Source: a virus (Duplodnaviria; Caudoviricetes). Taken from it: DNA of 64,000 nucleotides. Shown piece after piece: positions 41,098 to 61,291 of the stretch; position 1 is the first letter of the stretch, and each line of letters begins with the position of its first letter. Made by a program: the position numbers and the translations under genes. The notes under the pieces are model-generated. The model searched no databases. It saw only the letters and a program-made list of their open reading frames with translations, and had not been told where the DNA came from. The stretch is taken from positions 1 to 64,000 of the IMG/VR virus record IMGVR_UViG_3300014204_000013; one strand, written 5' to 3'.

Positions 41098-41124
41098 GTA
41101 GTTGGAAAGAATAGTAGAGTATAT

Positions 41125-41565: not shown

Positions 41566-41573
41566 CCTTAATA

Positions 41574-43677: not shown

Positions 43678-43912
43678 CTGGTTGACCTTCCATGGTATTC
43701 ATAGCTTTTAACAGCTCTCCAGTTGTGAATTTAATGCAGAATGTAGTGTAATTGTATTGATTGTCTTTTGTTGTTAATCCGCACCTGGCTGCGAATTCAG
43801 ATGCACTCATGATGTCTGGTAAATCAGCCACCCCTGCACTACCTTGCATTAGATATTTGTGGCCTACTTTATTTGGCGCTTTATCCCACATATATATGTG
43901 AAGAAACAGCAT
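43664..43912 (-). CDS. Hypothetical protein
   Basis: 82-aa ORF heading the leftward operon. Confidence 0.5.
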   Translation of the reverse strand: MLFLHIYMWDKAPNKVGHKYLMQGSAGVADLPDIMSASEFAARCGLTTKDNQYNYTTFCIKFTTGELLKAMNTMEGQPDAPA

Positions 43913-43945
43913 TATTTATATAGCTTTGTATTATACAATAGATTT

Positions 43946-45130: not shown

Positions 45131-45486
45131 GTTTATCCGGATTAGATGTTATTCTGGATACGTTTAAGTCTATGACAAACGAAATTCCAGATGAGGCAAC
45201 GGTTAAAGGTTTACTGATGCAATCAACTGTTCTTGGAGTGGATGCTTCTATTAAAGTTATTATCAAATCAAATACCTGGATAACTGCATTGCCCTATTTG
45301 CATGAAGCTGTTGGTGATATTCCGGAAGATCAAAATCATGAGATTGCGGTAAGGTTGTTAAATGTGGCAGAAGAACTTTGGCCAAGCTTTATATCAAGCG
45401 TGGAACATAGTAAAAAGAAGACTACTCACATCGCGAATATGCTAAAACTGATAATTCAGGAGATTCGAAATGGCTCTACCGATTGA
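45127..45486 (+). CDS. Hypothetical helical protein
   Basis: 119-aa ORF, ATGA-coupled. Confidence 0.6.
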   Translation: MSLSGLDVILDTFKSMTNEIPDEATVKGLLMQSTVLGVDASIKVIIKSNTWITALPYLHEAVGDIPEDQNHEIAVRLLNVAEELWPSFISSVEHSKKKTTHIANMLKLIIQEIRNGSTD

Positions 45487-46327
45487 AATTTTAAAAGACG
45501 ATAAATATGGAATTAATGGACCGTTTCGGGTCTACCATGTACCGGAAGGTCAAGGTTTGAAAGATGGAGCAATTGAAGATTTTAGGCAACCAATTGATTT
45601 CGATGGAAATCATAGACCTCTTGTCTATCTGCAGCTTACAAAAAATCCATTAACTAAAAAATTTGTGCCATATTCAATTTATTATGATGCAACTGCATAT
45701 ACGGATGAAATGATTATGGCAATTCCTACGTTAGGTGAAGTTGGGCAGAAATGTTCCTATTGTCAAGCTCGAAACGATGCAACAAAGGCTTTGGCTATTC
45801 CCGAAGAATCCTCTATTGAACCCACATCATTCGAAAGGGTGTCACAGACAATTCAAAATGCACAAAGACCTGTAGATGCACCTGTGAAATACATGGATAT
45901 GGGTAATATTGTAACCCCGTCATTTGTTTCTGCCGGGATCGATGTGTTATCTAAAGTTTTTTGTGAACCCCTGGGTGAAGCTCTTATCAAGATTGGGATG
46001 GCCGGATTGACATCGATTGCTGCTGGTTGGGCTTCGGAAGGAGGCACCCAGGCTGCTTGGCGAAAGATATCCGAGGACATAGTTCGCGACTACAAAATAT
46101 GTCCGACTGATATACCAAAAATTCAGCAAAACGTTGTCGCGATGAAAGATGCCCTCATGAAAGATCGAGGAAATATCATAGGAGCTGTATCTGCCGGCGC
46201 GTTTAAGAATTTTGGAAAGATCGCAAAAGAGCATGGATTCGAAGTTTCGGCACAAGGGCAGTTTGCCGGTAGAGCGTCTGTCGCGATTTCACCCATGCAA
46301 AGAGGACCTGGGAGGGCTATAGATTGA
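45470..46327 (+). CDS. Hypothetical protein with CxxC and an amphipathic/hydrophobic C-terminal half
   Basis: CSYCQ; LIKIGMAGLTSIAAGWA. Confidence 0.65.
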   Translation: MALPIEILKDDKYGINGPFRVYHVPEGQGLKDGAIEDFRQPIDFDGNHRPLVYLQLTKNPLTKKFVPYSIYYDATAYTDEMIMAIPTLGEVGQKCSYCQARNDATKALAIPEESSIEPTSFERVSQTIQNAQRPVDAPVKYMDMGNIVTPSFVSAGIDVLSKVFCEPLGEALIKIGMAGLTSIAAGWASEGGTQAAWRKISEDIVRDYKICPTDIPKIQQNVVAMKDALMKDRGNIIGAVSAGAFKNFGKIAKEHGFEVSAQGQFAGRASVAISPMQRGPGRAID

Positions 46328-46536
46328 GTCTTACAGATATTAAGAAGGCAATTGGATTACTTCGCAGTGGGGCGTTATATCCAGCCACTCTTCGCGAAGC
46401 ACAGCAGTTGGTGATATCAAGTGGCCAGCGAGTAAATGATATTGGAGTAGCAATATATTATGCTGAAAAAGGTGATAGGGAGAATGCGAGGAAGGCTGCA
46501 GGGAAGGCTGCAGATACATTAGCTAGGATGGTTTAA
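46324..46536 (+). CDS. Small helical protein
   Basis: 70-aa ORF, TTG start overlapping the upstream stop. Confidence 0.5.
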   Translation: MSLTDIKKAIGLLRSGALYPATLREAQQLVISSGQRVNDIGVAIYYAEKGDRENARKAAGKAADTLARMV

Positions 46537-47630: not shown

Positions 47631-48812
47631 ATGGTACAAGGTTATGGACGAATGGTGGTAAATTTCAAGTTCCCATTCAGCGTTACGGCAACTACGCCGG
47701 GAGCTTCTGTGCAATGTGGGGATGATCCGGCCTACGTTTACGAATTTGGCCTCAGCCGATACGCAAAACCATGGGAAGCGGCTCCAGATATGTGCGCAGA
47801 GCTTGAGGGTATCGAAATCATCGGCCCAGTAGATGCAATGGGTGTCAGAGTACCTATTAAGAGAGTAGCACCCGTTATTGCAGGTAACGATATCGGTGAG
47901 AATATTTCCATCAATGAAAAGATGGCCCCTGCATTGCGCGATGGATCTCCTGAAATTAATTATCCGTTCCGAGAGAGGCAGACAGCAATTAACTTTGGTA
48001 AAGCCCTTCTTATGGGTGGACCTGCTGATACGACTTCTGTTAAGATCGGCCCTGGCGACACACTAAATTTCAAGGTAGAGTTCCCGACACTAGCACATGG
48101 CGGCGACGCGGCCATCAATACAGATATGGAAATTAAGGCTCACATTGCCTTCGCGAAGGGACAGGATCAGATGCTTAATGCTCTGAAGGCCTCTCCAGTA
48201 GCTGAAGTTTCTGCTGCAGCCAATTCCAACCAGATCAGACAGTATGCAGTCCTGGGCGATATGGAGATTGCAGATGTTATTGGTGCTCAAGTTATCGATA
48301 GATCTGTTCCGGCAACTCTGGATTCCTGGTCCAGCCTAAACATGGGTCAAAATGCAGATGATCCTCAGATTAAGCGCATAATGATATACAGCAAGAACAA
48401 TCAGCCCACTACACCTAACCAAGAAATGGAATTAGTACGCGACGGCCAGTATGTACAGGTGCCTTTCCAGAGTCTGCGGTGGACAGCCACAGACAAGAAG
48501 TTCTACAGATTCACCCACTGCGGTGTTGTACCCCACCCCAACAACTTCCAGATAAAGTTCGAAAAGGGCAACAGTCGCTTCCCTCAGATCTTTAACTGTG
48601 AAACCGTCGATAATCCCTTCGTCATGCCTCAGCAGAGACTGGTTGCTAACCAGCGTTTCAATGGTCCAACTGAGCTTGCCAGGCCTTACACCCTCATGAA
48701 GGAGATCGGTTCCGTGAAGATCACTGACAACGGCGTTGCAATTCCAGCCTGGGCTGCAGGTGTCAGGGGATTCGAGATTGCGCTTTGGGGCTATGAATAC
48801 ACCCTCGCATAG
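47631..48812 (+). CDS. Candidate major capsid protein, double-jelly-roll-like (393 aa)
   Basis: Two beta-rich halves, no transmembrane segment, GGAGTG RBS, heads the structural operon; no HK97 features. Confidence 0.5.
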   Translation: MVQGYGRMVVNFKFPFSVTATTPGASVQCGDDPAYVYEFGLSRYAKPWEAAPDMCAELEGIEIIGPVDAMGVRVPIKRVAPVIAGNDIGENISINEKMAPALRDGSPEINYPFRERQTAINFGKALLMGGPADTTSVKIGPGDTLNFKVEFPTLAHGGDAAINTDMEIKAHIAFAKGQDQMLNALKASPVAEVSAAANSNQIRQYAVLGDMEIADVIGAQVIDRSVPATLDSWSSLNMGQNADDPQIKRIMIYSKNNQPTTPNQEMELVRDGQYVQVPFQSLRWTATDKKFYRFTHCGVVPHPNNFQIKFEKGNSRFPQIFNCETVDNPFVMPQQRLVANQRFNGPTELARPYTLMKEIGSVKITDNGVAIPAWAAGVRGFEIALWGYEYTLA

Positions 48813-48821
48813 GGGATACTA

Positions 48822-49613
48822 ATGGCCTTTATAATTTTTCCGATAGGTGATGTCTCCCTTAATACCATCCAGGGAGTATCGGACTACTGGGTGAGACTCC
48901 CGGTAAACGCCAAGCCCATTCGCAACATTACTACTCAACTCTGGGGTAGTTTGGCACTGGCCCTGGCCGGTGGAGCAAAAGGAGTATTCCTTGAATCTTT
49001 GAAAGTTGCTGATTCTGTCGTAATCGACAACTGTGAAGATGCATGGGACAGTGCCGTAGCAGCCAACACCACAAATGCGGTAGACCTGGTTGATTTCAAG
49101 GTAGGTACTGCTTCCGTGAAGCATGTTTGTGCCGCAGCGATGGCTGCAGATGTGTTTACCACAGAAGTAGTAGCTCCCGGAGATCTCGATACCTATACCC
49201 ATATTGAGGTATGGCTAAAGAGCAGTGTAGATATGGCTGCCGACAGCCTCAGAATTCTACTGGATGATACTGCAGATTGTGCATCCGTTCTGGAAACCCT
49301 AAGTGCTCCAGCCCTGGTTGCAAACGTCTGGAAACACTGCAGAATAGCTCTCGCCAATCCCCAGCTTGACCTGGCCATCATCTCTGCCGGCCTCCAATTC
49401 CATATTGATGTAGGGGCCTGTAATGTCTGGATGGATGATCTTCGCGCAGTAACTCTTGCACGTTCTGTCGAAGTTCTAAAAGTGGATGACTTCAATCCAG
49501 ATGACATGTATTTCGCACTGTCTGCTGGAATTGAATCTGATGACTGCAAGACCAATCGTAAATTGATGGTCTATTACACCAGCCCTGATGAAGACGATCA
49601 GTGCTCTAATTAA
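48822..49613 (+). CDS. Structural/decoration protein with a galactose-binding-like insertion (paralog A)
   Basis: IDNCEDAWD...THIEVWLKS...ANVWKH...WMDDLRAV (CBM-like pattern). Confidence 0.6.
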   Translation: MAFIIFPIGDVSLNTIQGVSDYWVRLPVNAKPIRNITTQLWGSLALALAGGAKGVFLESLKVADSVVIDNCEDAWDSAVAANTTNAVDLVDFKVGTASVKHVCAAAMAADVFTTEVVAPGDLDTYTHIEVWLKSSVDMAADSLRILLDDTADCASVLETLSAPALVANVWKHCRIALANPQLDLAIISAGLQFHIDVGACNVWMDDLRAVTLARSVEVLKVDDFNPDDMYFALSAGIESDDCKTNRKLMVYYTSPDEDDQCSN

Positions 49614-49625
49614 AGGTGATTAAAA

Positions 49626-50417
49626 ATGTTTTGTATATTTCCAATAGGGGATGTCTCTCTCAATACCATTCAGGGTGTATCTGATTATTGGGTAAGACTT
49701 CCAGTGGGTGCAAAACCCATCCGTAACATTACCACCCAGCTCTGGGGTAGTCTCGCTCTAGCACTCGCAGGTGGGTGTAAAGGTGTCTTTATGGAATCTC
49801 TCAGAGTTGCAGATTCTGTAATTATTGATAATTGTGAAGATGCTTGGGATGAAGCAGTCGGTGCGGATGTCACTGCTACTTTGGATAACGTTGATTTCAA
49901 AGTAGGAGCTGGAAGCTGTCAGTTTGATTTCGTAGTGGCTACTGCTGCAGGTGCTCTTACCACTGAAGTAGTAGCTCCTGGCGATCTCGACATCTATACT
50001 CACATTGAGTACTGGATCAAGTCCACCAAGGCAACAACTGCGGGCGATCTGACATTGAATGTGGCTGCTGACGCTAAGTGTGCCACTCCGTTAGAAACTT
50101 TGAACGTGCCTGCTCTTACCGCTAACGTCTGGACTCACGTTAGAACTGCTCTCGCCAACCCCCAGCTTGACCTGGCCATCATATCTGTAGGCATTGCATA
50201 TGCAGTGGACACTGCAGATATCTACAGCATTAACATTGATGATATCAGAGCAGTGACCCTTGCACGTTCTGTTGAGGTTTTGAAGGTGGATGATTTCTCT
50301 CCAGATGACATGTACTTCGCGCTGTCTGATGGAATTGAAAATGAAGGGGGTAAGACAAATCGTGTTCTAATGGTATATTACACCTCACCGGATGAAGACG
50401 ATCAGTGCAGCAGTTAG
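49626..50417 (+). CDS. Structural/decoration protein (paralog B)
   Basis: Near-identical N- and C-termini to paralog A; variable central patches. Confidence 0.6.
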   Translation: MFCIFPIGDVSLNTIQGVSDYWVRLPVGAKPIRNITTQLWGSLALALAGGCKGVFMESLRVADSVIIDNCEDAWDEAVGADVTATLDNVDFKVGAGSCQFDFVVATAAGALTTEVVAPGDLDIYTHIEYWIKSTKATTAGDLTLNVAADAKCATPLETLNVPALTANVWTHVRTALANPQLDLAIISVGIAYAVDTADIYSINIDDIRAVTLARSVEVLKVDDFSPDDMYFALSDGIENEGGKTNRVLMVYYTSPDEDDQCSS

Positions 50418-50482
50418 AAGAATATTCTTCTAGCCACTTTTTTATAACAAATTATATTAACACATACTACAATGTATCCGAT

Positions 50483-50911
50483 ATGTCACTATCGGGTAGA
50501 AGAGTTACGGTAAGCCCCCCACCAACTCCAACATGTCCTCCAGGACAATCGTATCAAATTGATCATCAGAAATGTGCTCCTGATTACAATTTGAATTGTC
50601 CGGATACCATGATGAGAGATTCTGTTGGAGTGTGCATACCCAAACCGTTGTTATGTCCCAATGGTAATATTGTAAATGGTCAATGTGTCCCATTACCCGA
50701 ACCCCCTATACAGTCAGCTCCATGTCCATCTAGTTTTCCTATGGCATCTGATGGTAAATGTATAGGTGCTGCAATCTGTCCATCCGGATCGAGTATAGTT
50801 AATGGTATCTGTAGGACACCTGACATTGTGGTACCAAAAATATGCACACCCGGAACAATTGAAATTAGCGGAAAATGTGTTGATATTACAAAAATTACTA
50901 CTGTTTTATGA
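50483..50911 (+). CDS. Cysteine-rich CPxG-repeat protein, paralog of 953..1447
   Basis: MSLSGRRV..TCPPGQSYQ..CAPDYNLNCP; CPNG, CPSS, CPSG, CTPG repeats. Confidence 0.75.
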   Translation: MSLSGRRVTVSPPPTPTCPPGQSYQIDHQKCAPDYNLNCPDTMMRDSVGVCIPKPLLCPNGNIVNGQCVPLPEPPIQSAPCPSSFPMASDGKCIGAAICPSGSSIVNGICRTPDIVVPKICTPGTIEISGKCVDITKITTVL

Positions 50912-50917
50912 TAGGAG

Positions 50918-51274
50918 ATGTACAAAATGGAATATGGCGTAGCTGTTGGATTAAACGGGTTAAAATCTGTATCTCAAACGTCTAACGTAGGATCGGCTAT
51001 AGCAAACGGACTTAATGTGTCAGCTAATCCAGATGGATCGAAAAATGTACATATGGGATATGGTGGAATAATTACAACTCCTCCTCCAAGTTGCCCATCA
51101 ACACATGCTGGGTTGTGTATTTTAAAATCCGGGATATCTGAAAAAGCATGTCCATCTGGATCACCTGCAGATTCAGCAGGGGTTTGTAAAACCTCTGGGG
51201 CTGTCATGGAACAAATCTGCCCATCCGGTACAGTTAAAGATTCACTTGGTAGGTGTGTATGGGTTCCACCTTAA
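50918..51274 (+). CDS. Cysteine-rich CPSG-repeat protein
   Basis: CPST..C, CPSG..AGVC, CPSG..LGRC. Confidence 0.7.
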   Translation: MYKMEYGVAVGLNGLKSVSQTSNVGSAIANGLNVSANPDGSKNVHMGYGGIITTPPPSCPSTHAGLCILKSGISEKACPSGSPADSAGVCKTSGAVMEQICPSGTVKDSLGRCVWVPP

Positions 51275-51275
51275 T

Positions 51276-51503
51276 TTATTTTAGAAAATTTATTGTACTC
51301 CTAATGTCTATCATTATTTTATCTACATCCAAATCTTTATTTACATTTGGTGGAAATATAATAAGTACACCATGGCTCATTACTTGTACGGTATCATGAT
51401 GTTTTAATTTATTTTCTTTACACCAAACCTTTGGCAATGTAACCCGTAACGAAGATCCCCCGGACTGAGTTACCATTACATCAGTTAATTTTGGCATTAT
51501 CAA
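51276..51503 (-). CDS. AbrB/MazE/SpoVT-family DNA-binding protein
   Basis: VTQSGGSSLRVTLPKVW...LKHHDTVQV. Confidence 0.8.
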   Translation of the reverse strand: MIMPKLTDVMVTQSGGSSLRVTLPKVWCKENKLKHHDTVQVMSHGVLIIFPPNVNKDLDVDKIMIDIRSTINFLK

Positions 51504-51612
51504 TAGTCTATATTCAAAGTATTTAACTTATTTCCTAAAAATCATTTATTCATACATACATATTTAACTTATTCAACATATCTTTTTATAATTAGCTAAA
51601 ATATAACTATGT

Positions 51613-52686
51613 ATGACATTTTTTGCCAAACCCGGATATGCCCAGTACTGCCCAGAGGTACTTCCAGAAGTATCAGTGGACAATGTAGTGGTAGCAGGTA
51701 CAGAAATCTGTAAATATGAAAATTACGGGAAGCGCCTTCTCGAAATTCGAAATCTGGTTTCGTCCAGGCCTGCAGCCAATCCCATAGAAACCGTAATCCA
51801 TACAGATATTAGCGGTGAATCCCAAAAGCTATATTCTGCCGGCCAGGGTAACGTCCGGGTTGATATGATTGACACTTTTGCAAATAAAACCAGAGCACGC
51901 GAATTTGTTTCCATTAGACAGAGGAGTGTAGGCGGTGCAGAAGCCAATATTATTAATCGATGTCATGTTGTAGTTCGGAATTACAATCTTCTCGATCTTT
52001 ATCGATGGGGTGTTAAACCTGATGATGCCATTACAGTAATTGATCCAACAAAACAGGAAGCCGATAAACAGCGCATACTGGCTGCTGCTAACATAGTTGA
52101 GCGTGCAACCGTGGGTGAACTCCCTAATCATATCGATCTTCTCAGCCCCTCTATCGAGGAACAATTTGAAGATATCAAGGAACTAGATCGCCAAATTCCA
52201 GCTTTGGCAGCTAACGGTGGCAGCCATGTCCTGGGTGGATCCTGGATTTCAGTGCCTCCCGGCTATGTCGCCGTGATCCTGGCTGTAGGAATAGACGCGC
52301 AACAGATAGTTCTTGATCTGGCCGCAGGCACTGGGCCTTTCAGATGCTGCTACATTTACATAAGTCGCGACGATCTAGAAAATTACGTTCGAATGGATGC
52401 CGCAGGAATGCCAAATATCATGTCAGGCGCTGCAGGGCAGTCTGATTTTGACATGAGAATGTATATCCCCGTGACAAAGAGATTCCAGCTCCAGATCGTA
52501 AATAATCACGCAATAAGTCCAACTGTTGCTAATCTTAGAGTACGAATGAGATACGGTCTTCGCAAGATGACGCTCATAGATCATGAAAAGTGGGCAATTC
52601 CCTACAACACTAATGATCAGGTTGCAGCAACAGCATTGCTTGAAAAATTTGGAGTCAAGGATAAGGTCATAATTGGCGAGCAGTAG
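51613..52686 (+). CDS. Second capsid-protein candidate with an internal two-fold repeat (357 aa)
   Basis: Halves end in VVVRNYNLLDLYRWGV and YGLRKMTLIDHEKWAI; beta-rich. Confidence 0.45.
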   Translation: MTFFAKPGYAQYCPEVLPEVSVDNVVVAGTEICKYENYGKRLLEIRNLVSSRPAANPIETVIHTDISGESQKLYSAGQGNVRVDMIDTFANKTRAREFVSIRQRSVGGAEANIINRCHVVVRNYNLLDLYRWGVKPDDAITVIDPTKQEADKQRILAAANIVERATVGELPNHIDLLSPSIEEQFEDIKELDRQIPALAANGGSHVLGGSWISVPPGYVAVILAVGIDAQQIVLDLAAGTGPFRCCYIYISRDDLENYVRMDAAGMPNIMSGAAGQSDFDMRMYIPVTKRFQLQIVNNHAISPTVANLRVRMRYGLRKMTLIDHEKWAIPYNTNDQVAATALLEKFGVKDKVIIGEQ

Positions 52687-52693
52687 GGGCACC

Positions 52694-53065
52694 ATGCCAA
52701 ACTACAGCCACATTCCTTTTTCCATCTACCGCCAATCCTTTGGTGGTGTTGGAGATGCGGGTCTTAAACGTTATGACATAATGCAGGGTGACTCATCTCA
52801 ATCCGGGTTGGGTGTTCCAGCGAAATCTATTGCAATAACCAACCACGGCCCCGGAATTATTTATTATCAACTTAGTTCCAATGGAGTTGATATTTCGGTA
52901 GTAGATGGTCTTGATTCTGGTCAAGCAAAAATATTCTCTGCAGATGAAGGAGTTTATGTATCAGTGATTTCATTATATTCAGACAATGCGGCTACTGTAT
53001 TCTCATTTATCGCAACTCCCGGAATTTGGACAGATGAAGAACTGGCTGACTTATTTGGAGGCTAA
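52694..53065 (+). CDS. Small beta protein, possible single-jelly-roll penton or minor capsid protein
   Basis: KSIAITNHGPGIIYYQLS pattern; start MPNYSH (track starts 52673). Confidence 0.45.
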   Translation: MPNYSHIPFSIYRQSFGGVGDAGLKRYDIMQGDSSQSGLGVPAKSIAITNHGPGIIYYQLSSNGVDISVVDGLDSGQAKIFSADEGVYVSVISLYSDNAATVFSFIATPGIWTDEELADLFGG

Positions 53066-53067
53066 AA

Positions 53068-54111
53068 ATGCCAACCATAGTAATGTTTACCATCAAGACT
53101 GATATCGATAGTCTTTATCTTAGTCGTGATGCAGGGGGGACTTTATTCGTTGATAAAGCATATGCAGGAGCATCGGATAGCAATGATGGTCTTTCAGCTA
53201 CTTCACCCAAGCTCACCATCATGGGGGCTGTAAACGCTGCCGGTCCCGGTTGGACTATTCGAATAGCCCCCGGATCATACGCTGAAAATGTGGTAATTCC
53301 TGCAGGGTCTGATGGAATTCAATTAGTTGGTCGTGCTCGCGATGGACCAAATAAGACATCGATAGCCCCAACTACAGGTAATCCGCTTACAATTAATTGC
53401 AGTTATGCTGAAATTTCCTATTTGGAATTAGTGGATATAACTGCAATTGCAGGATCTACCTGCCTATCAGTAACTGGATATCGTCATAAAATCCATGATA
53501 TTGCAGTCATGGGTGCTAGTGATGGTTGCATTGGAATTAGTCTTTCTAATGTAGACTACGGAGAAATTCATGACTGCTATCTTAATGGAGCATATGTACT
53601 TAATGGTATTGGAATTCTCATAATTGGTGATTCCATTGGAACTAGAATATATCATAATTATATAACAAAATGGGGTAGTGGATCAAGCGATCCAGCTCAT
53701 GTGCCTGGTGATCCTCTCGCTCATAATGGATATGGCATCGGCAGAGATCATGATGCTCAACGTATTGCGATTGAAGAAAACGACATTATAGATAATTTCG
53801 TTGGGGTTTATTTCTATCCACCACCCGGAGCTACGGGCCTTGAAGGTGACTATGTAGGCCATAACAATTTTCTGGAAAATCGTAGTTATGATGTATGGGA
53901 TTCACATGCACATCCAACATCTGCTATTGCCATAGACGAGAATTTTTATGGTTATACTACAGGATCTAATAATTGGTATGATGATCCCAACGGAGACAAC
54001 ATCGCAGACCTGATAGTTATATGCGGGACCACAAACCGAGATAGACACCCGGTTCCAAGTCCTTATAGTTGGAAGAATAACAAAGGAAATTCTAGGGTAG
54101 GAGTGATTTAA
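53068..54111 (+). CDS. Right-handed beta-helix (pectin lyase/NosD-like) spike protein
   Basis: DSNDGLSATSPKLTIMGAV...IRIAPGSYAENVVI; N/G/I-rich coils. Confidence 0.75.
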   Translation: MPTIVMFTIKTDIDSLYLSRDAGGTLFVDKAYAGASDSNDGLSATSPKLTIMGAVNAAGPGWTIRIAPGSYAENVVIPAGSDGIQLVGRARDGPNKTSIAPTTGNPLTINCSYAEISYLELVDITAIAGSTCLSVTGYRHKIHDIAVMGASDGCIGISLSNVDYGEIHDCYLNGAYVLNGIGILIIGDSIGTRIYHNYITKWGSGSSDPAHVPGDPLAHNGYGIGRDHDAQRIAIEENDIIDNFVGVYFYPPPGATGLEGDYVGHNNFLENRSYDVWDSHAHPTSAIAIDENFYGYTTGSNNWYDDPNGDNIADLIVICGTTNRDRHPVPSPYSWKNNKGNSRVGVI

Positions 54112-54230
54112 ATTGGATAAACCCATCATATCTGAAAAGGGTGAATCGCCTGGAACTCTACCAGATGAAGCCCCAATACCAATTGCAATTGTCAAAAATA
54201 AAGTACCAAAAATTGATGAGGTGATGCCAA

Positions 54231-55802
54231 TTGCATGATAAATGTAATCCAACTCCCAACGATGTAGCCTACATCGATCCATTTAAAGATTCTCATCTTG
54301 ACACCACGTTTTGGGTTTCCGCAGTTACGGGTGGTGTAACTGTAACTGAGGGTATTGGTCTTTTATCTATAGACCATGAAATTGCAGCCGTAGTAGGATC
54401 TGGCAGTATTACAACTCTTAAAAAATTTGGATGGCATCAAACAATTTCTGCAGGTTTGACATTAGTAACCGGATCAATTGCTGGGGATGGAAATCATGCC
54501 GAAGCAGGAATTACCCTTTACAAAGATGCAACCCACTTCGTAAAATTTGGACCATATAGAGACACAGCAGCCGGTACAAACCGTCTATCCATGCTTCATT
54601 ATCAAAATGGTGGAGCAGATAACTATGTTGCTTTTTCAGCTACTATTTGTGATGCTCTTTCTCATCAATATACCATAGTAATGCTTGAAAATCGAGCAAT
54701 TTTATTGTTAGATGGTGCGATAGTTTATGATTTTGAGTTGGTAGGGTTTGTAGATTATACTGTAGCATTAGATGCAACGGTAACTGCAGTAGGAGATCAC
54801 GTACATGCTAATTTTGCCAATTTCATGTGCATCAAAAACACAGATTTTATATCATCGTTATTTCAAGCAAACTCTTCTGCAGCTTTAATTGCTATGCTAA
54901 CGGCTACCGATCTAGTAGTTGATGATATTCATGCGGATCTTATAACTGTAGACGGCATTGCCGATGATATTAAAGCACAAGTATTGTTAATGGATACAAA
55001 ACACATGTTCTCGGGTCATATAGACCTCCCTAACACCACAGCGGTCGAACTTACGTTTGACTCGGCTACTCATGGAGATCAGTTTGAGTTGGTCCTGGCT
55101 GCAGCTCTGGGTATGGGTATAATGGAAAAGGCAGTAGTAAGTGATAATGGATCTTACACCGATTTCACCAGTCAATGCAATAGCCTGACAACCAGAGATG
55201 TGAGAATGCTTCCTGCAGTTCCAGTAACTAACCAGGATGCTTTCATAGTAATGGCTGCAGCTAAATTTTGTTACATTGATGTCTATATGGAAGGTGGAAT
55301 AGTAAATACCAACAACGTGATCGCTATCCAATACTACAAAGATGATCACACTTGGGTAAACATTCCCGGAGTTACAGATGGTACATTTGACACCCAGTCT
55401 CTGGGTAAGAGTGGTCGTGTAAGTTTCTCACCCCCGGCAGACTGGGATACTCAGACTCTGGATGGATTTACAGGGTATGCAGTTCGATTTTACGTAACAA
55501 CCGCAGGCGCAGATGTACCATACGCAACACATATCCAGCTTAGTGATGATACGTCTGAATCATTTGATCAAGTGGCAGGAGTGTTTGATACCCTATTGGT
55601 ATATATTAAACGAAATTTCCCAACCATCGGATATCAAACGATGATTGGTGACAAAATGGAGTACGTTCAAGCAATCGGAATTAGAGATGTAGATATAAAC
55701 GGGTATAGATGCTACGGTGATACCAAAATAGGATTTCAACTGGGTGCAACTCCAGGAAAAAATGTGGCCATACCTTATTTCGGATTTACTCGGAGGCTTT
55801 AA
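54231..55802 (+). CDS. Multi-domain fibre/spike protein (lectin-like N-domain, coiled linker)
   Basis: Beta-rich domains joined by VDDIHADLITVDGIADDIKAQV. Confidence 0.6.
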   Translation: MHDKCNPTPNDVAYIDPFKDSHLDTTFWVSAVTGGVTVTEGIGLLSIDHEIAAVVGSGSITTLKKFGWHQTISAGLTLVTGSIAGDGNHAEAGITLYKDATHFVKFGPYRDTAAGTNRLSMLHYQNGGADNYVAFSATICDALSHQYTIVMLENRAILLLDGAIVYDFELVGFVDYTVALDATVTAVGDHVHANFANFMCIKNTDFISSLFQANSSAALIAMLTATDLVVDDIHADLITVDGIADDIKAQVLLMDTKHMFSGHIDLPNTTAVELTFDSATHGDQFELVLAAALGMGIMEKAVVSDNGSYTDFTSQCNSLTTRDVRMLPAVPVTNQDAFIVMAAAKFCYIDVYMEGGIVNTNNVIAIQYYKDDHTWVNIPGVTDGTFDTQSLGKSGRVSFSPPADWDTQTLDGFTGYAVRFYVTTAGADVPYATHIQLSDDTSESFDQVAGVFDTLLVYIKRNFPTIGYQTMIGDKMEYVQAIGIRDVDINGYRCYGDTKIGFQLGATPGKNVAIPYFGFTRRL

Positions 55803-57536
55803 ATGTCTAATATTGCATCAAAAATTCAAAGTAAAATACAGCCCTTGGATGCCAGAAGCATCCAGGAGGTATGTTTTTTAGGCGATACTTCAGTATCCGC
55901 TAACTTAATAACCGATATACCAAAAAGTATATTGGTTGGAAAATCTCAAGATAGTATTGTCGAAATTAAAAGTATTCAATTATCAGATTTGAATGATCAA
56001 ACTCAACCTAAATGGATAGAAGATTATAACACGGAAATAGAAAAATCAACAGCATGGTTAAAACTGGAAGGCATATTATCAACTATTAGACCAGTATCAA
56101 TAATGTCATGTGTTCCATCTGATATGTTTGCTGACGCAGGTGCATTTATTCCAGGTGCTCCTGCACAAATAAATTCAAGTGGGGAAGCATCAAAAATATT
56201 AATTACAGGAATAGGTAATAAAGAAGTTGTGCTTTTTACTGATGCAACCTATTCTAATGCTTATGCAGGATATGCTCTTTATCCATCTGTATCCAGACAG
56301 ATGTATTTATCTCCTGAAGGAAATTTATATATTTTCATAAGTTTAATTTATGGCGGATCTGCACATTCAAGATGTATCTATGGCAAATCCACGGATGGTG
56401 GAGTTAATTGGGTATGGACCGAAGTTGATCCAACAGAAGCTGAAGGACATGCACATACCGCATTAGCAGTAGACAAATATGGGGATATTCATTTTGTTTG
56501 GGCAACTACGGATCATACTAATTTGTTATATAAATTAAAACATGCAAAATTAAATGTAAAAACCGGAGTGATTGGTAGCATTTCAACCATAAATGACAAT
56601 GCCAAAATTTGGAATATATGCCCTTCAATTCAAATTGCTTCAGATGGAGAAAAACTTCATATAATGTGGTTGAGCGCAACTGATAGTACGGCATATCCAA
56701 ACATTTATTCTAGAACTGTAAATTTTAATGGTTCACTTGAAGCCATAGAGCAAATTACATCTGATGGTGGATCAAATATTTCCTATCAATATATTACAAT
56801 GGATACAGATAATAATGGATATCGACATGTGGTATCCATAGCAAAGAAAAATGCAACCACCGAATTTAATATATATTACAAATATGAAAATGGTGGTGGA
56901 TGGCAAGCAGCTCAACAGTTAAATTACGAAGCAGATGAAAATAAAGCAGCTCATTATATGTCTAATATACTTATTGATAAGAATAACAATATTTATATTG
57001 CATATGATATTGGGCCTTTCGATTCAACAACAAAGACCCCATTATACATACGAAAACTTTTTAATGGATCGACCTACCCAAGGGTTACAGTGCAAGCCGG
57101 AAATCCAGATATAGGTGGAACAATCCCTCACATGCAATTTGATAAAAATGAAAATATTACAATTGTATATATGAGCAATACCGCTCCTGATACTTATAAT
57201 GCTAGGAACATAACCAAAAATTTGGAAGTTGGAGATAGAATTATACTCCATGAAGTAGAAGCAGGACATGATCTATCCTATATTCACACACCCACTGGTA
57301 TGTTTCCTAACATTTCTGGCATCAATCCCAATGTAGCTCAACAAAATCTATTTTATGTTTATGCAGATTATGTTACGGGTGTGCCTGGTGCTATTGATAT
57401 TAAATTAGGATATGTTCGTGATTGCATAATGGGCAATCCAATTTTACCTCCTAGACTAAATGTTAATAATATAAATATTCGTGGATCTATAAGTAGATCA
57501 AAATTTAATGGTATGGCAAATCCAGCCTTACTTTAA
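55803..57536 (+). CDS. Beta-propeller (BNR/Asp-box) protein
   Basis: GKSTDGGVNW; repeated D..G..H(F/V)VW blades. Confidence 0.75.
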   Translation: MSNIASKIQSKIQPLDARSIQEVCFLGDTSVSANLITDIPKSILVGKSQDSIVEIKSIQLSDLNDQTQPKWIEDYNTEIEKSTAWLKLEGILSTIRPVSIMSCVPSDMFADAGAFIPGAPAQINSSGEASKILITGIGNKEVVLFTDATYSNAYAGYALYPSVSRQMYLSPEGNLYIFISLIYGGSAHSRCIYGKSTDGGVNWVWTEVDPTEAEGHAHTALAVDKYGDIHFVWATTDHTNLLYKLKHAKLNVKTGVIGSISTINDNAKIWNICPSIQIASDGEKLHIMWLSATDSTAYPNIYSRTVNFNGSLEAIEQITSDGGSNISYQYITMDTDNNGYRHVVSIAKKNATTEFNIYYKYENGGGWQAAQQLNYEADENKAAHYMSNILIDKNNNIYIAYDIGPFDSTTKTPLYIRKLFNGSTYPRVTVQAGNPDIGGTIPHMQFDKNENITIVYMSNTAPDTYNARNITKNLEVGDRIILHEVEAGHDLSYIHTPTGMFPNISGINPNVAQQNLFYVYADYVTGVPGAIDIKLGYVRDCIMGNPILPPRLNVNNINIRGSISRSKFNGMANPALL

Positions 57537-57979
57537 TTTTTTTCTATAGATTCCCCCGTAATAACAACATTTTTTCGTCTATCCTTCTGATATATCTCTT
57601 CAGGTGTGCTACATATTTCTCGAATATTTGCTATACTGATCACTTTTCCAATACAGGATGATGTGTTGATTACAGCCTGTTTTGTTTCTATTCCCACCCA
57701 ACCATCGGTTAATTTAACTATTGCAATGCAATGGCCGTTTGGCTGGCCATCTGGCATTGGTTTGTCTTCTATGATTGCGATGCCCATAGTATAACCTAAA
57801 TTTTGTAATAATTTATAATTTGCAATAGACATATCTACGCAATCGAATATATCTAATTCTGGTTTATATATAAAATGATATGAGTTTAATATGCCTTGGA
57901 GCTTTACTAATTCATCATTTACCGCTATACTGGGTACGACACTTATCAACATTATTGTAATCATAAGCATTTTAAGCAT
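57533..57979 (-). CDS. Secreted transglutaminase-like cysteine hydrolase
   Basis: Signal peptide; FDCVDMS...LQNLGY; GHCIAIV; GIET. Confidence 0.7.
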   Translation of the reverse strand: MLKMLMITIMLISVVPSIAVNDELVKLQGILNSYHFIYKPELDIFDCVDMSIANYKLLQNLGYTMGIAIIEDKPMPDGQPNGHCIAIVKLTDGWVGIETKQAVINTSSCIGKVISIANIREICSTPEEIYQKDRRKNVVITGESIEKN

Positions 57980-58028
57980 ATCAACCTCATTAGGTAAGCT
58001 AATATAAAAGAACCACTAACATATCTAT

Positions 58029-58970
58029 ATGACTCGTCCCACTACACGTTTCCCTCGTTGGCGCTGGCAACAAGTATTAGATGAAAATGATCATATTTTA
58101 CTAGAAGGTGATCAATCATGCTATTTTAACCGCCTCATGGATCTTGGTCAACCAATTGAAGATAATGATGCTGCAACCAAAAAATACGTAGATGATAATA
58201 GCGGAACCGGCAGTGGTGAAATCAACACAGCCAGCAACCTGGGTGCTGGGGATGGACTTTACAGCGCGAAAGTTGGAGTAGATCTGAAATTCAAATCTCT
58301 AACTGAAGGAACCGGCATAACTTTAACTCCCGGAGCTAACGAAATTGAAATAGCATCACATGCGAATACTAATGATCCTAGCGTGGATGAGAAGGCAGCC
58401 ATGGCTGGAACTTCAGGCACTGCTCCGGATGCAACCAATCCTTTTGTTGATAATGCTGACACTAGAATGTCTGATAGCAGGACACCCACTGCGCATAATC
58501 ATGATGGATCTGCTATTAATGCAGGCACTATAGATGGTGACAGGCTCCCAGCATTGGATGCTGCCAAACGGGGTGGTGTCCCAGCAACTGGAGTACCTTC
58601 GGGTAAATTTTTAAAAGATAATGGTTCTTGGGATGTACCTGTAGCAGCCGGAATAGATGGTCCGTATAGAGTTAAACATGACGACGCATCTCCTGTAACT
58701 CTTTTTTCTACGACCGAATTCTGTGAAATTAAAATAGTAGCTGCTAAATGTATTGTAGCAGATGCTGCAGCTACTTTAGAAATAGGATTTGCCGGAAACA
58801 CAGCAGCTTTAATGTCAAACGTTGAAATGCCTAAGCTATTAAACGGTAAAAAAGTAAATATATTTCCAACAGCTACTATTGAAGCAATAACCCCAGTTAT
58901 AGCCACAATTGGCGGTGGGGGAGTAACTGGAGAATGGGATGTTTGGTTCGAAGTTGTGAGGTTTACATGA
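58029..58970 (+). CDS. Fibre-like structural protein
   Basis: DAATKKYVD; NTASNLGAG; TPTAHNH; GKFLKDNGSW fibre-type motifs. Confidence 0.7.
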   Translation: MTRPTTRFPRWRWQQVLDENDHILLEGDQSCYFNRLMDLGQPIEDNDAATKKYVDDNSGTGSGEINTASNLGAGDGLYSAKVGVDLKFKSLTEGTGITLTPGANEIEIASHANTNDPSVDEKAAMAGTSGTAPDATNPFVDNADTRMSDSRTPTAHNHDGSAINAGTIDGDRLPALDAAKRGGVPATGVPSGKFLKDNGSWDVPVAAGIDGPYRVKHDDASPVTLFSTTEFCEIKIVAAKCIVADAAATLEIGFAGNTAALMSNVEMPKLLNGKKVNIFPTATIEAITPVIATIGGGGVTGEWDVWFEVVRFT

Positions 58971-60391
58971 AGCTAATTAATATGGTTATTGTGTTATCTA
59001 TTCTTCTCGCAATTGTTGGAGGAGGATTGGCGGCAAAAAACGGGCCGTGGGATGGCAGAACAGGAGCAAATATAACTCTGGACAATGCTTACGTCAAGGG
59101 TGCTCTGGCAGGCATAGCCACAAACGATGTATCTAACATGGGACAGCTATGGATGAAGGTAAACAAGTCCGGCGACACCATGACGGGGGCGCTGAATGTC
59201 GTCAACGGCACCGGTCAGGCTGCGGTATCCTATGCTCAACTTTGGGATAATCGCGATTTTACAGTATCTTATGACGGCATCATCAAGCAAAAAAGCTCCA
59301 CGTTCTACGGCATAAATGGGGCAGGAACCGTAATCAGCAGCGGCATGGATTTCGGCACGGTTTTCAACACGCTTGTAGACTCTCTGAGGACTGGCCAGAG
59401 CTGCCCGGCCACAATCGCCATAGATTGCCCAAGCGTAACCAATACATCAACATGCTATTTATATTCTGAAATGAATGTTGTGGGCATCGGCAGGCCACAT
59501 ATCAGCACGGCCATTGATCGCCCGATCTTCAAATCTAACGCCTCCAATTACCACAGCGGATTTGCTCTTAGGGGACTCTATTTGCGTTTCACCGGGGCGG
59601 GACATTACACTAGCAGGCACATTGAGATATATAATGCGTCATATAATTACATAGATGAAATATATACAATGATGCCAAATACGCATTACGACGACACCAA
59701 CCACGGCGGCATTCTGTTCGACGGCACAAGTGGCACGACCTGGCTAAATTATATTACAAATAGCCACATATCGCAAGTCACCATTAGAAATTCTACCGAT
59801 AACTGGATAGACAAATGCTCGATAGTCAATTGGGAGATGACCAACCATGCCATACTATTAATAGGCACCTGCAACAATGCCAAAATAACTGAAAATCACA
59901 TAATCTGTCCATCCGGTGCTGTATCACCTGCTGGCATTTATACCGATTCAGCACAGTTCGGTATTCAGGTTCTAGGGAATTGGTTTGAGCCACAGGATGC
60001 TTGGTCATCTGGCGAGTTCCAGGGAGGGATATTCAGCAACGGTCTGTGGACCTTCTGCGATGTGTCCAATAACCACTTCAATTCGTTAGGCGGGGCAGGA
60101 CTAAATTTCAACGGCGGGTTTTCCTATGGCACCATAAATAGGAACAATTTTTACAATGTGAATCTCGCTAATAATGTTGGCTTCCGGTGCATTTCATTTG
60201 GGTCTGGGGCTTATAACTCAATCAGCAATAATGTGGCCTATGCAAACGGCCAAACCACAAAAGCATCATTCTGTTGGGGATCGGATTATTCGTCATATTC
60301 TGCGAATGTCATTAATGGAGATTTCTCAGACGACATAAATCCGATAGGTACCGGATCAAAAGAAAACGGGACCATTTCGGTACTCCATTAA
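58967..60391 (+). CDS. Signal-peptide-bearing fibre/beta-helix protein
   Basis: MKLINMVIVLSILLAIVGGGLA; VNKSGDTMTGAL fibre motif; NosD-like repeats (track starts 58934). Confidence 0.7.
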   Translation: MKLINMVIVLSILLAIVGGGLAAKNGPWDGRTGANITLDNAYVKGALAGIATNDVSNMGQLWMKVNKSGDTMTGALNVVNGTGQAAVSYAQLWDNRDFTVSYDGIIKQKSSTFYGINGAGTVISSGMDFGTVFNTLVDSLRTGQSCPATIAIDCPSVTNTSTCYLYSEMNVVGIGRPHISTAIDRPIFKSNASNYHSGFALRGLYLRFTGAGHYTSRHIEIYNASYNYIDEIYTMMPNTHYDDTNHGGILFDGTSGTTWLNYITNSHISQVTIRNSTDNWIDKCSIVNWEMTNHAILLIGTCNNAKITENHIICPSGAVSPAGIYTDSAQFGIQVLGNWFEPQDAWSSGEFQGGIFSNGLWTFCDVSNNHFNSLGGAGLNFNGGFSYGTINRNNFYNVNLANNVGFRCISFGSGAYNSISNNVAYANGQTTKASFCWGSDYSSYSANVINGDFSDDINPIGTGSKENGTISVLH

Positions 60392-60627: not shown

Positions 60628-60891
60628 TTACTCGGGAAATTCTGGCGTAAATTCTGCCAGAACTGTTTCCCCGAGTTTGACATTTCCCAGTATTTCCTCG
60701 ACACCCACCTTATCAGGTCCCTCGATTTTAAGAGTTACCTTATACACCCCATCATCCACAACAATGGACTCAGTAGCGGTTACAGTGTAACCCGTTTTTT
60801 TTGTACCCTTGGATGTAAGCTTGGGAGGTTTTGGTCCACTGGTGGTTATCAACAAATTAACTGTCATTCCTAACCACCCACTCAATACCAA
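60628..60891 (-). CDS. Small hypothetical protein
   Basis: 87-aa ORF downstream of MC1. Confidence 0.5.
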   Translation of the reverse strand: MVLSGWLGMTVNLLITTSGPKPPKLTSKGTKKTGYTVTATESIVVDDGVYKVTLKIEGPDKVGVEEILGNVKLGETVLAEFTPEFPE

Positions 60892-61291
60892 CCTTTTTCA
60901 CATGTGGAATATTTATCATTGGACCCAACCATGCCGGATCCTTATCTGTCTTTGCTCGTTGAATTTTGGATCCCGCAAACACATGCACCTTAACTTCTGT
61001 GATCTTCCCTTCCTGAGTATTTCGAGATCGGCGTACCCCAGTTTCCCGTAGTCTAATATCTGTTATGCCCTGATTTGCTATTTTCAAAGCAGCCTGTCTA
61101 GGGGCCTTTCCTGCATATCTGCCAATATCGTTATTATTGATATCCAACAGACAGAAATTCCGCACAACTCTTTTTACGGAACTTGCTTTTACGGGCGTAG
61201 TCTTAGTCTTATCCGTCTTCATCGAAGACTTGGTTGCCTTATTGGCAACCGTCTTTTTATCCTTCTTAATAGCCATTTTATTCCTCTTCAT
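60857..61291 (-). CDS. mc1: MC1-family non-histone chromosomal protein with a Lys-rich N-terminal tail
   Basis: RNFCL.D..N..G.Y.GKAPRQAALKIAN.G...IRLRETG...VHVF.G...P.W...I..P.VKK..IE matches MC1. Likely start 61276 (MAIKK) after GAGG. Confidence 0.9.
   Translation of the reverse strand: MKRNKMAIKKDKKTVANKATKSSMKTDKTKTTPVKASSVKRVVRNFCLLDINNNDIGRYAGKAPRQAALKIANQGITDIRLRETGVRRSRNTQEGKITEVKVHVFAGSKIQRAKTDKDPAWLGPMINIPHVKKVGIEWVVRNDS

Follow-up and report, generated by a model that had tools for sequence, protein, structure and literature searches.

The viral DNA considered here raises the question of what kind of particle is built by a large genome in which a first-pass annotation, made from the sequence alone, had seen two different capsid-like proteins, possibly both jelly-roll, and no recognisable gene of a tailed virus. 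The window (the whole stretch of DNA that was analysed, 64 kb) belongs to a virus genome that is complete at 77,180 bp with 123-bp direct terminal repeats, so that the large genome proposed in the annotation is borne out, and the ORFs it named are present where it placed them. The comparison includes three complete relatives of 69-76 kb and a further related genome that is ~88% complete, and 28 core proteins are common to the four complete genomes. We regard it as probable that this region encodes the virion of a complete 77-kb archaeal virus, one that belongs to the double jelly-roll (DJR) type.

The replication and nucleotide genes that had been ascribed to this virus were also recovered. 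They comprise a PolB of the DNA_pol_B family that carries an intein, a primase-helicase, dCMP deaminase and a ThyA-like protein, together with a chromatin protein whose gene adjoins the structural block:

60857..61291, minus strand: MC1-type chromatin protein (PF05854, 61.8 bits, over cut-off)

MC1 is 42-47% identical in the relatives and, among 14 control genomes, was found only in Haloferax and Methanosarcina. The host is probably a methanogen or another MC1-bearing archaeon, the viral MC1 gene being the sole clue to it.

The central gene of the module encodes a protein of 393 residues:

47631..48812, plus strand: 393-aa DJR protein, candidate major capsid protein (AF2 model and structural matches)

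Its AF2 model (47-sequence alignment; pLDDT 92.4, pTM 0.91) contains the two beta lobes that had been read from the sequence: eight strands are followed by helices and at least eight more strands, and the chain ends in a beta strand. In full-length comparisons with VIA-align, the best Z scores were obtained with P3 of PR772 (10.6; 252 residues aligned, rmsd 4.6), P3 of PRD1 (10.4) and cellular DUF2961/GH172 (10.4), next to the STIV capsid protein (10.2; 244 of 323 residues aligned, rmsd 4.3), PHM (8.4), PBCV-1 (8.1), PM2 (7.9) and FLiP (6.8). All four DJR families, as defined previously (PMC8812541), are matched. The re-aligned Foldseek list has 50 rows, of which 48 match known DJR families over the full length, and the other two (SPV1 and HHIV-2) are single jelly-roll capsid proteins that match one lobe; a wide structural search with the model was likewise dominated by DJR matches. 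At a Z of about 10 with an rmsd of 4.3-5 Å, the predicted fold is solid and the kinship distant. The modelled protein has the vertical double jelly-roll fold expected of a major capsid protein in Bamfordvirae, and it would be the capsid protein of this virus.

The 393-aa protein belongs to no Pfam, PHROG or NCBIfam family, none of the 47 members of its own family matches a capsid family or other relevant Pfam family, and a sequence-profile search of the PDB gave nothing. No similarity of the protein was detected within the phage and virus collection, and a language-model atlas yielded nothing beyond weak leads, which went to PRD1 P3 clusters (0.82). Among the 28 core proteins, the 393-aa protein ranks first in conservation, with 77-78% identity among the four complete genomes.

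Downstream lies the gene for the second protein that had been proposed as a capsid subunit:

51613..52686, plus strand: 357-aa protein with two tandem jelly-roll-like domains and helices after each (AF2 model)

The model (pLDDT 87.4, pTM 0.87) places beta-sandwich units at residues 11-124 and 185-318, separated by a helical linker, and each unit ends in a strand and helices that bear the two motifs from which an internal duplication had been deduced. That duplication holds, both in the model and in a profile-profile alignment of the two halves (residues 106-169 against 301-356; 55 columns, E 1.1e-4, probability 57%). Known structures match the protein in single domains only, with Foldseek TM scores of at most 0.3. 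For domain 1 the matches are Ena1B (Z 9.3), HHIV-2 (7.1) and chain O of PR772 (6.8), and for domain 2 the SPV1 capsid protein (8.3; 144 of 178 residues aligned), PRD1 P5 (7.1) and STIV A223 (6.8). A role as a second DJR capsid protein was rejected, as the domains do not superpose on DJR capsid proteins. Thus, of the two possible jelly-roll capsid proteins in the first-pass annotation, the DJR fold stands for the 393-aa protein and falls for the 357-aa one, which is more likely, judging from its model, a vertex, turret or minor capsid protein. In Helvetiavirae, two separate vertical single jelly-roll capsid proteins form heteromeric capsomers; against the capsid proteins of HHIV-2, HCIV-1 and P23-77, the domains of both proteins reach only Z 5.2-7.4, and the 393-aa model is that of a genuine DJR protein.

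Between and after these two genes are several smaller candidates for vertex positions:

48822..49613, plus strand: 263-aa protein, first of two tandem copies (71% identity between them)
49626..50417, plus strand: 263-aa protein, copy 2 (differences from copy 1 cluster in a central inserted domain)
52694..53065, plus strand: 123-aa small beta-rich protein (ORF present, conserved after the 357-aa gene)

The 263-aa protein, which is single-copy in close relatives, has a conserved N- and C-terminal frame with a variable beta domain inserted between. In the distant relatives L016, L010 and L020, shorter versions (124-141 aa, without the central domain) stand directly after the DJR gene, whose constant follower there is this family and not the 123-aa ORF. 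From its sequence, the 263-aa protein is a candidate vertex, penton or decoration protein. The 123-aa ORF, which the first-pass annotation had called penton-like, comes directly after the 357-aa gene in most of the relatives with that gene (L003-L009, L013 and L018); searches of Pfam, PHROGs, NCBIfam and PDB sequences gave no match to it, and its profile resembles none of the other jelly-roll families in the module. A single jelly-roll penton near the capsid gene could be the base domain of the 263-aa protein, the 123-aa ORF or a domain of the 357-aa protein, and sequence profiles link neither of the first two to a penton protein.

The remainder of the module comprises putative spikes and fibres, a possible scaffold and several conserved small proteins:

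53068..54111, plus strand: 347-aa right-handed beta-helix protein, spike or fibre candidate (DUF1565, 1.9e-6, over cut-off)
54231..57536, plus strand: two large beta-rich proteins, 523 and 577 aa (syntenic, 31-37% identical in relatives)
58029..58970, plus strand: 313-aa fibre-like protein (phrog_21962 'tail protein', 2.4e-8)
58934..60391, plus strand: 485-aa genome-specific protein with an N-terminal hydrophobic segment (no homologue in relatives, no family)
43859..45130, plus strand: 423-aa Ala/Glu/Lys-rich protein (helical by composition)
45127..46327, plus strand: conserved 119-aa and 285-aa proteins of the morphogenetic module (no Pfam or PHROG family)
43243..43677, minus strand: 144-aa core protein, second most conserved in the module (65-66% identity in close relatives)
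51276..51503, minus strand: 75-aa conserved small protein (45-49% identity in relatives)

The spikes or fibres that had been suggested here find family matches in the 347-aa protein and in the 313-aa protein, the latter with PHROG tail or fibre families, and the other candidates belong to no family. The 347-aa protein is 55% identical in relatives, and its homologue in L013 carries a Pel9A-like_beta_helix. In the 313-aa protein, the N-terminal anchor is conserved (only ~60 residues in relatives) and the distal part is variable. The 523-aa and 577-aa proteins, which have only sub-threshold family matches, are presumed to be outer virion or adhesion proteins. The 423-aa protein, without a family in Pfam, PHROGs or NCBIfam, is 45-46% identical in close relatives, and proteins of 389-430 aa occupy the equivalent position in distant ones; it may be a scaffold or tape-measure protein. 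The 285-aa family occurs in all relatives, including the distant L013, L016, L018 and L020, and these four also contain the 144-aa protein. The 75-aa protein is probably a DNA binder of the AbrB/MazE type: its equivalent in L040 has a weak MazE_antitoxin match, and one small ORF of the present genome, not specified further in the result, matches MazE_antitoxin at 6.7e-4. The plus-strand block that holds the DJR gene together with the beta-helix and fibre genes is syntenic in close relatives of 65-77 kb, and its conservation extends to distant relatives, whose contigs reach 84 kb.

Profile searches (Pfam, PHROGs and six-frame HMM) of the four complete genomes of 69-77 kb and the ~88% complete one found no terminase, portal, HK97 capsid or tail family over threshold, in called ORFs or in six frames, and Terminase_6N and Phage_capsid had no match at E<=1 in the five. 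The lack of such genes noted in the window thus extends to the whole 77,180-bp genome and its three complete relatives. The annotation had named two outcomes that would speak against it, folds other than jelly-rolls and a terminase, portal or HK97 module outside the window, and neither occurred. The FtsK/HerA ATPase is a hallmark partner of DJR capsid proteins, and an A32-like enzyme of this kind, which had been proposed as a search target, is absent. FtsK_SpoIIIE gave nothing in six frames of this genome and one relative (G001), and the Pox_A32 match in a six-frame search of equal scope (11.4 bits) was discarded, as it covers only the P-loop of a Sak4-like protein. The latter, a Sak4/RecA-like recombination ATPase that is 38-46% identical to tailed-phage recombination proteins, is the sole clean P-loop protein. 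When all ORFs of this genome were scanned with Pfam and PHROGs, and its six frames for Walker-A motifs, no other plausible P-loop ATPase emerged: the remaining Walker-A motifs lie only in the intein segment of the helicase, a giant ORF, an HNH endonuclease and a 71-aa ORF. The three complete relatives, scanned for Walker-A motifs, likewise gave no conserved candidate. In addition, the genome contains no cluster of small membrane proteins of the PRD1-like kind.

These results bear on several readings of the locus. Essentially as in the first-pass annotation, the 393-aa and 357-aa proteins might both be major shell components, forming different capsomer types or an inner and an outer layer. Both are capsid-sized and their genes co-occur across the family, out to a far relative (L026); the 357-aa protein is an internally duplicated jelly-roll unit whose domains resemble the capsid proteins of HHIV-2 and SPV1. 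However, these domains are not in a DJR arrangement, no DJR protein aligns across both, and single-domain Z scores of 7-9 are common for any beta sandwich. The 357-aa protein is also less conserved (58-61% identity) than the 393-aa one, and we consider a shell of two major proteins unlikely. Doubtful, too, is the view that the 393-aa protein is not a shell protein at all, and is instead a DUF2961-like carbohydrate-active or adhesion protein or a D13-like transient scaffold in a virion of other architecture. The cellular DUF2961/GH172 structure scores Z 10.4, level with the viral capsid proteins, so that the predicted fold alone is unable to tell a capsid protein from an enzyme, and the D13 and Orf virus scaffold proteins reach Z 7.0-7.4 (D13 itself 7.2). 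Many neighbouring genes look glycan-binding, and neither a packaging ATPase nor obvious internal-membrane proteins were found. Against this, none of the 47 family members matches PF11175 (DUF2961/GH172) at E<=0.01, the model lacks the C-terminal helix of DUF2961 (PMC8812541), the conservation of the protein would be unusual for an adhesin, and family searches recognised no alternative capsid candidate anywhere in the genome.

A member of Caudoviricetes so divergent that profile searches miss its HK97 capsid protein, portal and terminase would explain a 77-kb genome with direct terminal repeats, which are typical of tailed viruses, as well as the PHROG 'tail' matches of fibre-like proteins. A Phage_portal segment was seen inside the giant ORF, but it is sub-threshold (15.8 bits against a cut-off of 39.1) and absent from four relatives. 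The PHROG 'terminase' matches were dismissed, as they fall on the helicase intein (residues 32-399), and the one clean P-loop ATPase is the Sak4/RecA-like protein. With no terminase, HK97 or portal match over threshold in five related genomes, this explanation is very improbable.

The interpretation as a DJR virion module draws on the fold and conservation of the 393-aa protein, its syntenic block with beta-helix and fibre genes, the lack of tailed-virus families, the resemblance of the 357-aa domains to capsid and vertex jelly-rolls, and the existence of DJR groups without a packaging ATPase (Odin and FLiP; PMC5894146). The DUF2961/GH172 tie, the missing FtsK/HerA ATPase and the lack of a membrane-protein cluster count against it. 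What the analysis shows is the fold of two proteins, the gene content and the synteny, from which the capsid and vertex roles, a tailless icosahedral shape and the packaging route are inferred. Under this interpretation, the 393-aa protein would assemble into trimeric, pseudo-hexagonal capsomers, and these would tile a tailless icosahedral shell with the duplicated 263-aa, the 357-aa and the 123-aa proteins at its five-fold vertices and in minor capsid positions. Host recognition would fall to spikes made of the beta-helix and fibre proteins (53068-60391), and the upstream 423-aa helical protein might be a scaffold or size-determining protein. As the genome encodes neither of the known types of packaging motor, its DNA is probably enclosed during assembly in a condensed state, perhaps brought about by the viral MC1; alternatively, packaging may depend on an unrecognised factor or on one from the host. 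Assembly around DNA has been argued for ATPase-less DJR viruses with genomes of 7-11 kb, not 77 kb (PMC5894146).

The closest known systems include PRD1/PR772 (Tectiviridae) and STIV (Turriviridae), which are placed as prokaryotic DJR-capsid viruses in Bamfordvirae, class Tectiliviricetes. The predicted fold superposes on theirs over both jelly-rolls (Z 10.2-10.6, 244-256 residues aligned), and in both cases jelly-roll accessory and spike genes adjoin the capsid gene and tail genes are absent. In contrast to them, the 77-kb genome encodes no FtsK/HerA ATPase, and the sequence of the 393-aa protein resembles none of the known capsid protein families. The stacked jelly-rolls of the 357-aa protein recall the STIV A223 turret and the vertex proteins PRD1 P5 and PR772 chain O, the last of which we take to be possibly the P31 penton; each domain reaches Z 6.8-7.1 with these, whereas the matches are single-domain and middling, and the helical linker and C-terminal helices have no counterpart. 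Cellular DUF2961/GH172 is equal in structural score (234-239 residues aligned) and differs in its Pfam identity, its C-terminal helix and the position of the present gene in a virus structural module.

In the Odin and FLiP groups, no packaging ATPase is detectable although a DJR capsid protein is present (Yutin et al. 2018, PMC5894146); they also share with the present virus extra beta-sandwich proteins beside the capsid gene and an AbrB-type gene (a probable one here). This likeness is one of gene content, and their genomes are of 7-11 kb (Odin) or ssDNA of up to ~17 kb (FLiP group), compared with 77 kb of presumably dsDNA here. In the ANME-1 viruses Chaacviridae and Ixchelviridae (order Coyopavirales), DJR capsid proteins are recognisable only by structure prediction (PMC9894754), as is the case here, and these are likewise archaeal viruses of methane-cycling hosts, the host here being suggested by MC1 alone. 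However, inverted terminal repeats and a protein-primed PolB mark the chaacviruses, whose genomes measure 10-11 kb (PMC9894754), whereas the present genome has 77 kb, direct repeats and a PolB with an intein. Prokaryotic DJR virus genomes are generally of roughly 7-18 kb (PMC5894146), and the small gene sets described in the literature consulted lack the polymerase, helicase and primase-helicase set, the nucleotide-metabolism genes and the MC1 of the 77-kb genome. If the DJR capsid reading is true, the genome of this virus would be several times the size of any yet described for a bacterial or archaeal virus with that type of capsid.

The proposed virion module of this genome contains the following genes:

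47631-48812, plus strand: 393-aa candidate capsid protein with a predicted double jelly-roll (DJR) fold
48822-49613 and 49626-50417, plus strand: tandem pair of 263-aa proteins
50405-51274, plus strand: two small Cys/Pro-rich proteins (168 and 118 aa)
51613-52686, plus strand: 357-aa tandem jelly-roll protein
52694-53065, plus strand: 123-aa protein
53068-54111, plus strand: DUF1565/Pel9A-type beta helix (family match)
58029-58970, plus strand: fibre-type protein (PHROG match), with only ~60 N-terminal residues conserved

For the 393-aa protein, a word-based search retrieved 12 close homologues. A profile of these 12, run exhaustively with HMMER, extended the family to 57 cluster representatives, down to ~20% identity. 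The AlphaFold2 model, built on a 47-sequence alignment, is confident (pLDDT 92.4, pTM 0.91) and comprises two beta lobes, each with at least eight strands, and helices joining them. The model was compared by VIA-align with 48,161 PDB representatives and then with the top 1000 chains from Foldseek. In the Foldseek-derived list, 48 of the 50 matches listed are full-length DJR matches and two are single jelly-roll capsid proteins placed on one lobe; the wide PDB search was also dominated by DJR matches. The matched groups coincide with the four DJR families defined by Krupovic et al. 2022 (PMC8812541).

Table. Structural matches of the 393-aa model (VIA-align)
PR772 P3: Z 10.6 (252 aligned, rmsd 4.6 A)
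PRD1 P3: Z 10.4
STIV capsid protein: Z 10.2 (244/323 aligned, rmsd 4.3 A)
PBCV-1: Z 8.1
PM2: Z 7.9
Faustovirus: Z 7.3-7.7
phiCjT23: Z 7.3
Poxvirus D13: Z 7.2
FLiP: Z 6.8
DUF2961/GH172 (cellular): Z 10.4
PHM (cellular): Z 8.4
PNGase F (cellular): Z 6.3

Because the model is confident and the DJR-dominated matches cover all four DJR families, the predicted DJR fold is well supported, in agreement with the two-lobed beta protein that the first-pass annotation had recognized. A weak profile similarity between the two lobes (E 3.8e-4 over 105 columns) hints at an ancestral duplication. The fold alone does not separate a capsid protein from an enzyme resembling DUF2961, a cellular family that is among the matches. 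Such an enzyme is, however, the less favoured reading: Pfam DUF2961 has no match among the 47 family members, DUF2961 has a C-terminal helix that is missing from the model, and the 393-aa protein is the most conserved (77-78% identity) of 28 genes common to four complete genomes. Moreover, DUF2961 homologues are not found in viruses (PMC8812541). A capsid protein thus remains the preferred assignment for the 393-aa product.

The first-pass annotation had also considered the 357-aa protein as a possible second jelly-roll capsid protein. This family comprises 22 homologue clusters at identities of at least 58%, and more distant homologues occur in four loci of relatives (L013, L018, L020, and L026). 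Its AlphaFold2 model (25 sequences; pLDDT 87.4, pTM 0.87) consists of a beta sandwich (residues 11-124), helices (126-184), a second sandwich (185-318), and C-terminal helices. The two motif copies noticed earlier occupy equivalent places, one in each unit, at the final strand and the helix that opens the helical part. As the halves also align with each other (E 1.1e-4), the internal duplication is real. Domain 1 matches Ena (Z 9.3), HHIV-2 (Z 7.1), and PR772 chain O (Z 6.8), and domain 2 matches the SPV1 capsid protein (Z 8.3), PRD1 P5 (Z 7.1), and STIV A223 (Z 6.8). All matches are to single domains, with no DJR protein aligning over both, and Foldseek gave TM values of no more than 0.3 in PDB and BFVD, the BFVD matches being only non-specific beta sandwiches (TM at most 0.29). 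The 357-aa product is therefore a tandem jelly-roll protein rather than a second DJR capsid protein. We read it as a putative vertex, turret, or minor capsid protein; a role as a second shell protein is possible.

No family or sequence match to the 393-, 357-, 263-, or 123-aa proteins was found in Pfam, PHROGs, NCBIfam, or PDB sequences, and when the module's jelly-roll families were compared profile against profile, similarity appeared only within the two internal duplications. The 263-aa proteins are tandem paralogues (71% identical) that correspond to a single copy in close relatives; in the distant loci L016, L010, and L020, the gene immediately after the DJR gene encodes a 124-141-aa version that lacks the central domain. 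Given this position of the short version, we rank the family no lower as a penton candidate than the 123-aa ORF, which had earlier been called penton-like and which directly follows the 357-aa gene in most relatives carrying that gene (L003-L009, L013, and L018). An upstream trio (a 423-aa helical-looking protein and proteins of 119 and 285 aa) keeps its position in all relatives and its sequence in part, as does a 144-aa minus-strand protein. The virion shape and protein roles proposed here are those suggested by predicted folds and gene order.

Two features of this region are absent from all relatives. The Cys/Pro-rich proteins, which carry repeated CPxG-like units and are encoded after the 263-aa pair and before the 357-aa gene, have no counterparts there, and a NUMOD-repeat/HNH homing endonuclease gene (46519-47328, minus strand) is inserted among the structural genes just upstream of the DJR gene.

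The window covers bases 1-64000 of an IMG/VR virus record of 77,180 bp. The record is listed as having direct terminal repeats, of which a 123-bp exact repeat was confirmed, and its CheckV completeness is given as 100%. Family scans covered all 122 ORFs of at least 50 aa, including the 13 kb beyond the window. The replication genes identified by these scans are as follows:

8773-11562, minus strand: primase-helicase (PHROG)
15503-18097, minus strand: XPD/DinG-type helicase with a Hint/LAGLIDADG intein (Pfam)
21106-24732, minus strand: family B DNA polymerase (PolB) with an intein (Pfam)

Pfam also identified a dCMP deaminase, a ThyA-like protein, a radical-SAM protein, and MC1, besides two staphylococcal-nuclease/PEGA proteins and a giant protein of 2862 aa that contains a PEGA domain. 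The PolB intein spans approximately residues 606-968 and contains LAGLIDADG, and that of the helicase (Hint plus homing endonuclease) spans approximately residues 32-399. The staphylococcal-nuclease-like genes (29880-31067 and 39871-41097), one of which encodes PEGA domains, flank the giant ORF, and this trio is kept in close relatives at 46-65% identity; in the distant locus L013, an SNase/PEGA gene adjoins a 3590-aa giant ORF. The 553-, 276-, and 2862-aa proteins (19412-21073, 29000-29830, and 31054-39642; all minus strand), otherwise unrelated, have similar Ser/Thr/Pro/Lys-rich N-terminal leaders with common boxes (e.g., RNPxLKP and QNARxTITPK) that end in K(I/T)MSV or GIMSV immediately ahead of the globular portion. 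These leaders look like a shared targeting signal or cleaved propeptide, and the proteins are possibly packed inside the particle. An insert of ~475 bp (41098-41573) separates two convergent genes that abut in relatives. Neither this insert nor any other part of the window matched an Rfam family at gathering thresholds, and no tRNA was found in the window.

With regard to a head-tail module, no ORF of the 77-kb genome matched terminase, portal, HK97 capsid, sheath, or tube families in Pfam or PHROGs. Six-frame HMM searches with Terminase_6N and Phage_capsid returned nothing at E<=1 in any of five genomes: the present one, three relatives with complete genomes (75.9, 70.3, and 69.3 kb), and a further relative at 88% completeness. 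Phage_portal (PF04860) gave one sub-threshold segment, inside the 2862-aa ORF (36322-36558, minus strand; profile positions 111-165; 15.8 bits against a cut-off of 39.1), which is absent from four relatives and probably due to chance, and PHROG "terminase large subunit" matches on the 864-aa helicase were rejected because they cover residues 32-399, i.e., its intein. The lack of a terminase, portal, HK97 capsid, and tail tube reported for the window thus extends to the rest of the genome and to relatives. The earlier picture of a large, apparently tailless jelly-roll virus largely stands, the nature assigned to its second protein being the part that does not.

A packaging ATPase was likewise not detected. 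In a six-frame scan, Walker-A motifs occurred in only five proteins: the helicase, the giant ORF (twice), the HNH endonuclease, a 71-aa ORF, and a 490-aa protein.

61354-62826: 490-aa Sak4/RecA-like protein (matches AAA_24 and phrog_1366)

The 490-aa protein shares 38-46% identity with the Sak4/RecA-like recombination proteins encoded by Mx8, phi105, and Acinetobacter phages. These phages all rely on terminases, and the protein was rejected as a packaging motor on the basis of this relationship. The HNH endonuclease, a homing enzyme that relatives lack, was also rejected; its Walker-A-like motif is a chance occurrence. The FtsK/HerA (A32-like) ATPase that the first-pass annotation had raised for the rest of the genome did not emerge: FtsK_SpoIIIE had no match in this genome or in one related genome (G001), and a Pox_A32 search of these two genomes touched only the P-loop of the 490-aa protein (11.4 bits). 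The three complete relatives contain no conserved canonical P-loop protein. Because a conserved viral MC1 gene (60857-61291, minus strand) adjoins the structural block, protein-mediated condensation of the DNA is suggested, in which MC1 may be the condensing protein.

The 357-aa gene was found at 57-61% identity in seven IMG/VR loci, six of which (contigs of 44-76 kb) have the whole syntenic block from 39871 to ~57536 and a DJR gene that is 77-78% identical. Distant relatives (contigs of 27-84 kb) have DJR proteins at 25-32% identity. We presume from sample ids that the relatives come from anaerobic digester or sludge metagenomes. GenBank phages gave no tblastn match to the 393-aa protein, and IMG/VR scans with two distant capsid proteins (P0037 and P0056) returned no match either. 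Public copies (NCBI and JGI) are all labelled "hypothetical protein", and the atlas clusters nearest the 393- and 357-aa families carry the label Uroviricota wherever the phylum is known. As public databases hold no annotation for either of these capsid-module families, marker-based classification currently cannot see viruses of this kind.

Of 14 control genomes, those of Haloferax and Methanosarcina alone contain the MC1 family; as MC1 is the sole host clue, a methanogen is only the presumed host. When the genome collection was scanned for the capsid gene, the sole hits were two contigs of 13 kb, L021 (JBBACV010000019.1) and L022 (CAYUUY010000017.1). These contigs carry the structural block of this group, with a 78% identical capsid gene; their assignment to metagenome-assembled genomes of Acholeplasmataceae and Saccharibacteria most likely reflects mis-binning.

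Full-text searches turned up no account of a large DJR virus from methanogens or from archaea in general; the 2023 methanogen-virus compendium was covered only via citation, and a prior description is possible. Taken as a whole, a previously undescribed archaeal DJR lineage (four complete genomes of 69-77 kb and contigs of distant relatives up to 84 kb), with a large icosahedral shell, no packaging ATPase, and MC1-condensed DNA, is a tentative proposal that we consider rather doubtful. If true, it would represent a prokaryotic "large DJR virus" that pairs complex replication machinery with encapsidation by a route that needs no motor. To our knowledge, the large DJR viruses described so far all come from eukaryotes. 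A 65-85-kb archaeal family with its own PolB, helicases, nucleotide-metabolism genes, and chromatin protein would fill the size gap, and would show that DJR capsids are able to support large genomes in prokaryotes as well. The missing ATPase raises the interest, as its absence at 77 kb challenges the published view that only very small DJR viruses manage without one and provides a testable case for assembly around protein-condensed DNA.

Prokaryotic DJR viruses span ~7-18 kb (Yutin et al. 2018, PMC5894146), and the genomes of ANME-1 chaacviruses are 10-11 kb (PMC9894754); the present genome is ~4-10 times the reported size range. Among the prokaryotic DJR viruses of that study, the ATPase is missing only in the Odin and FLiP groups, which was attributed to very small genomes assembling around their DNA (PMC5894146). 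The ATPase is missing here too, but in a genome of 77 kb, which places this virus outside that picture.
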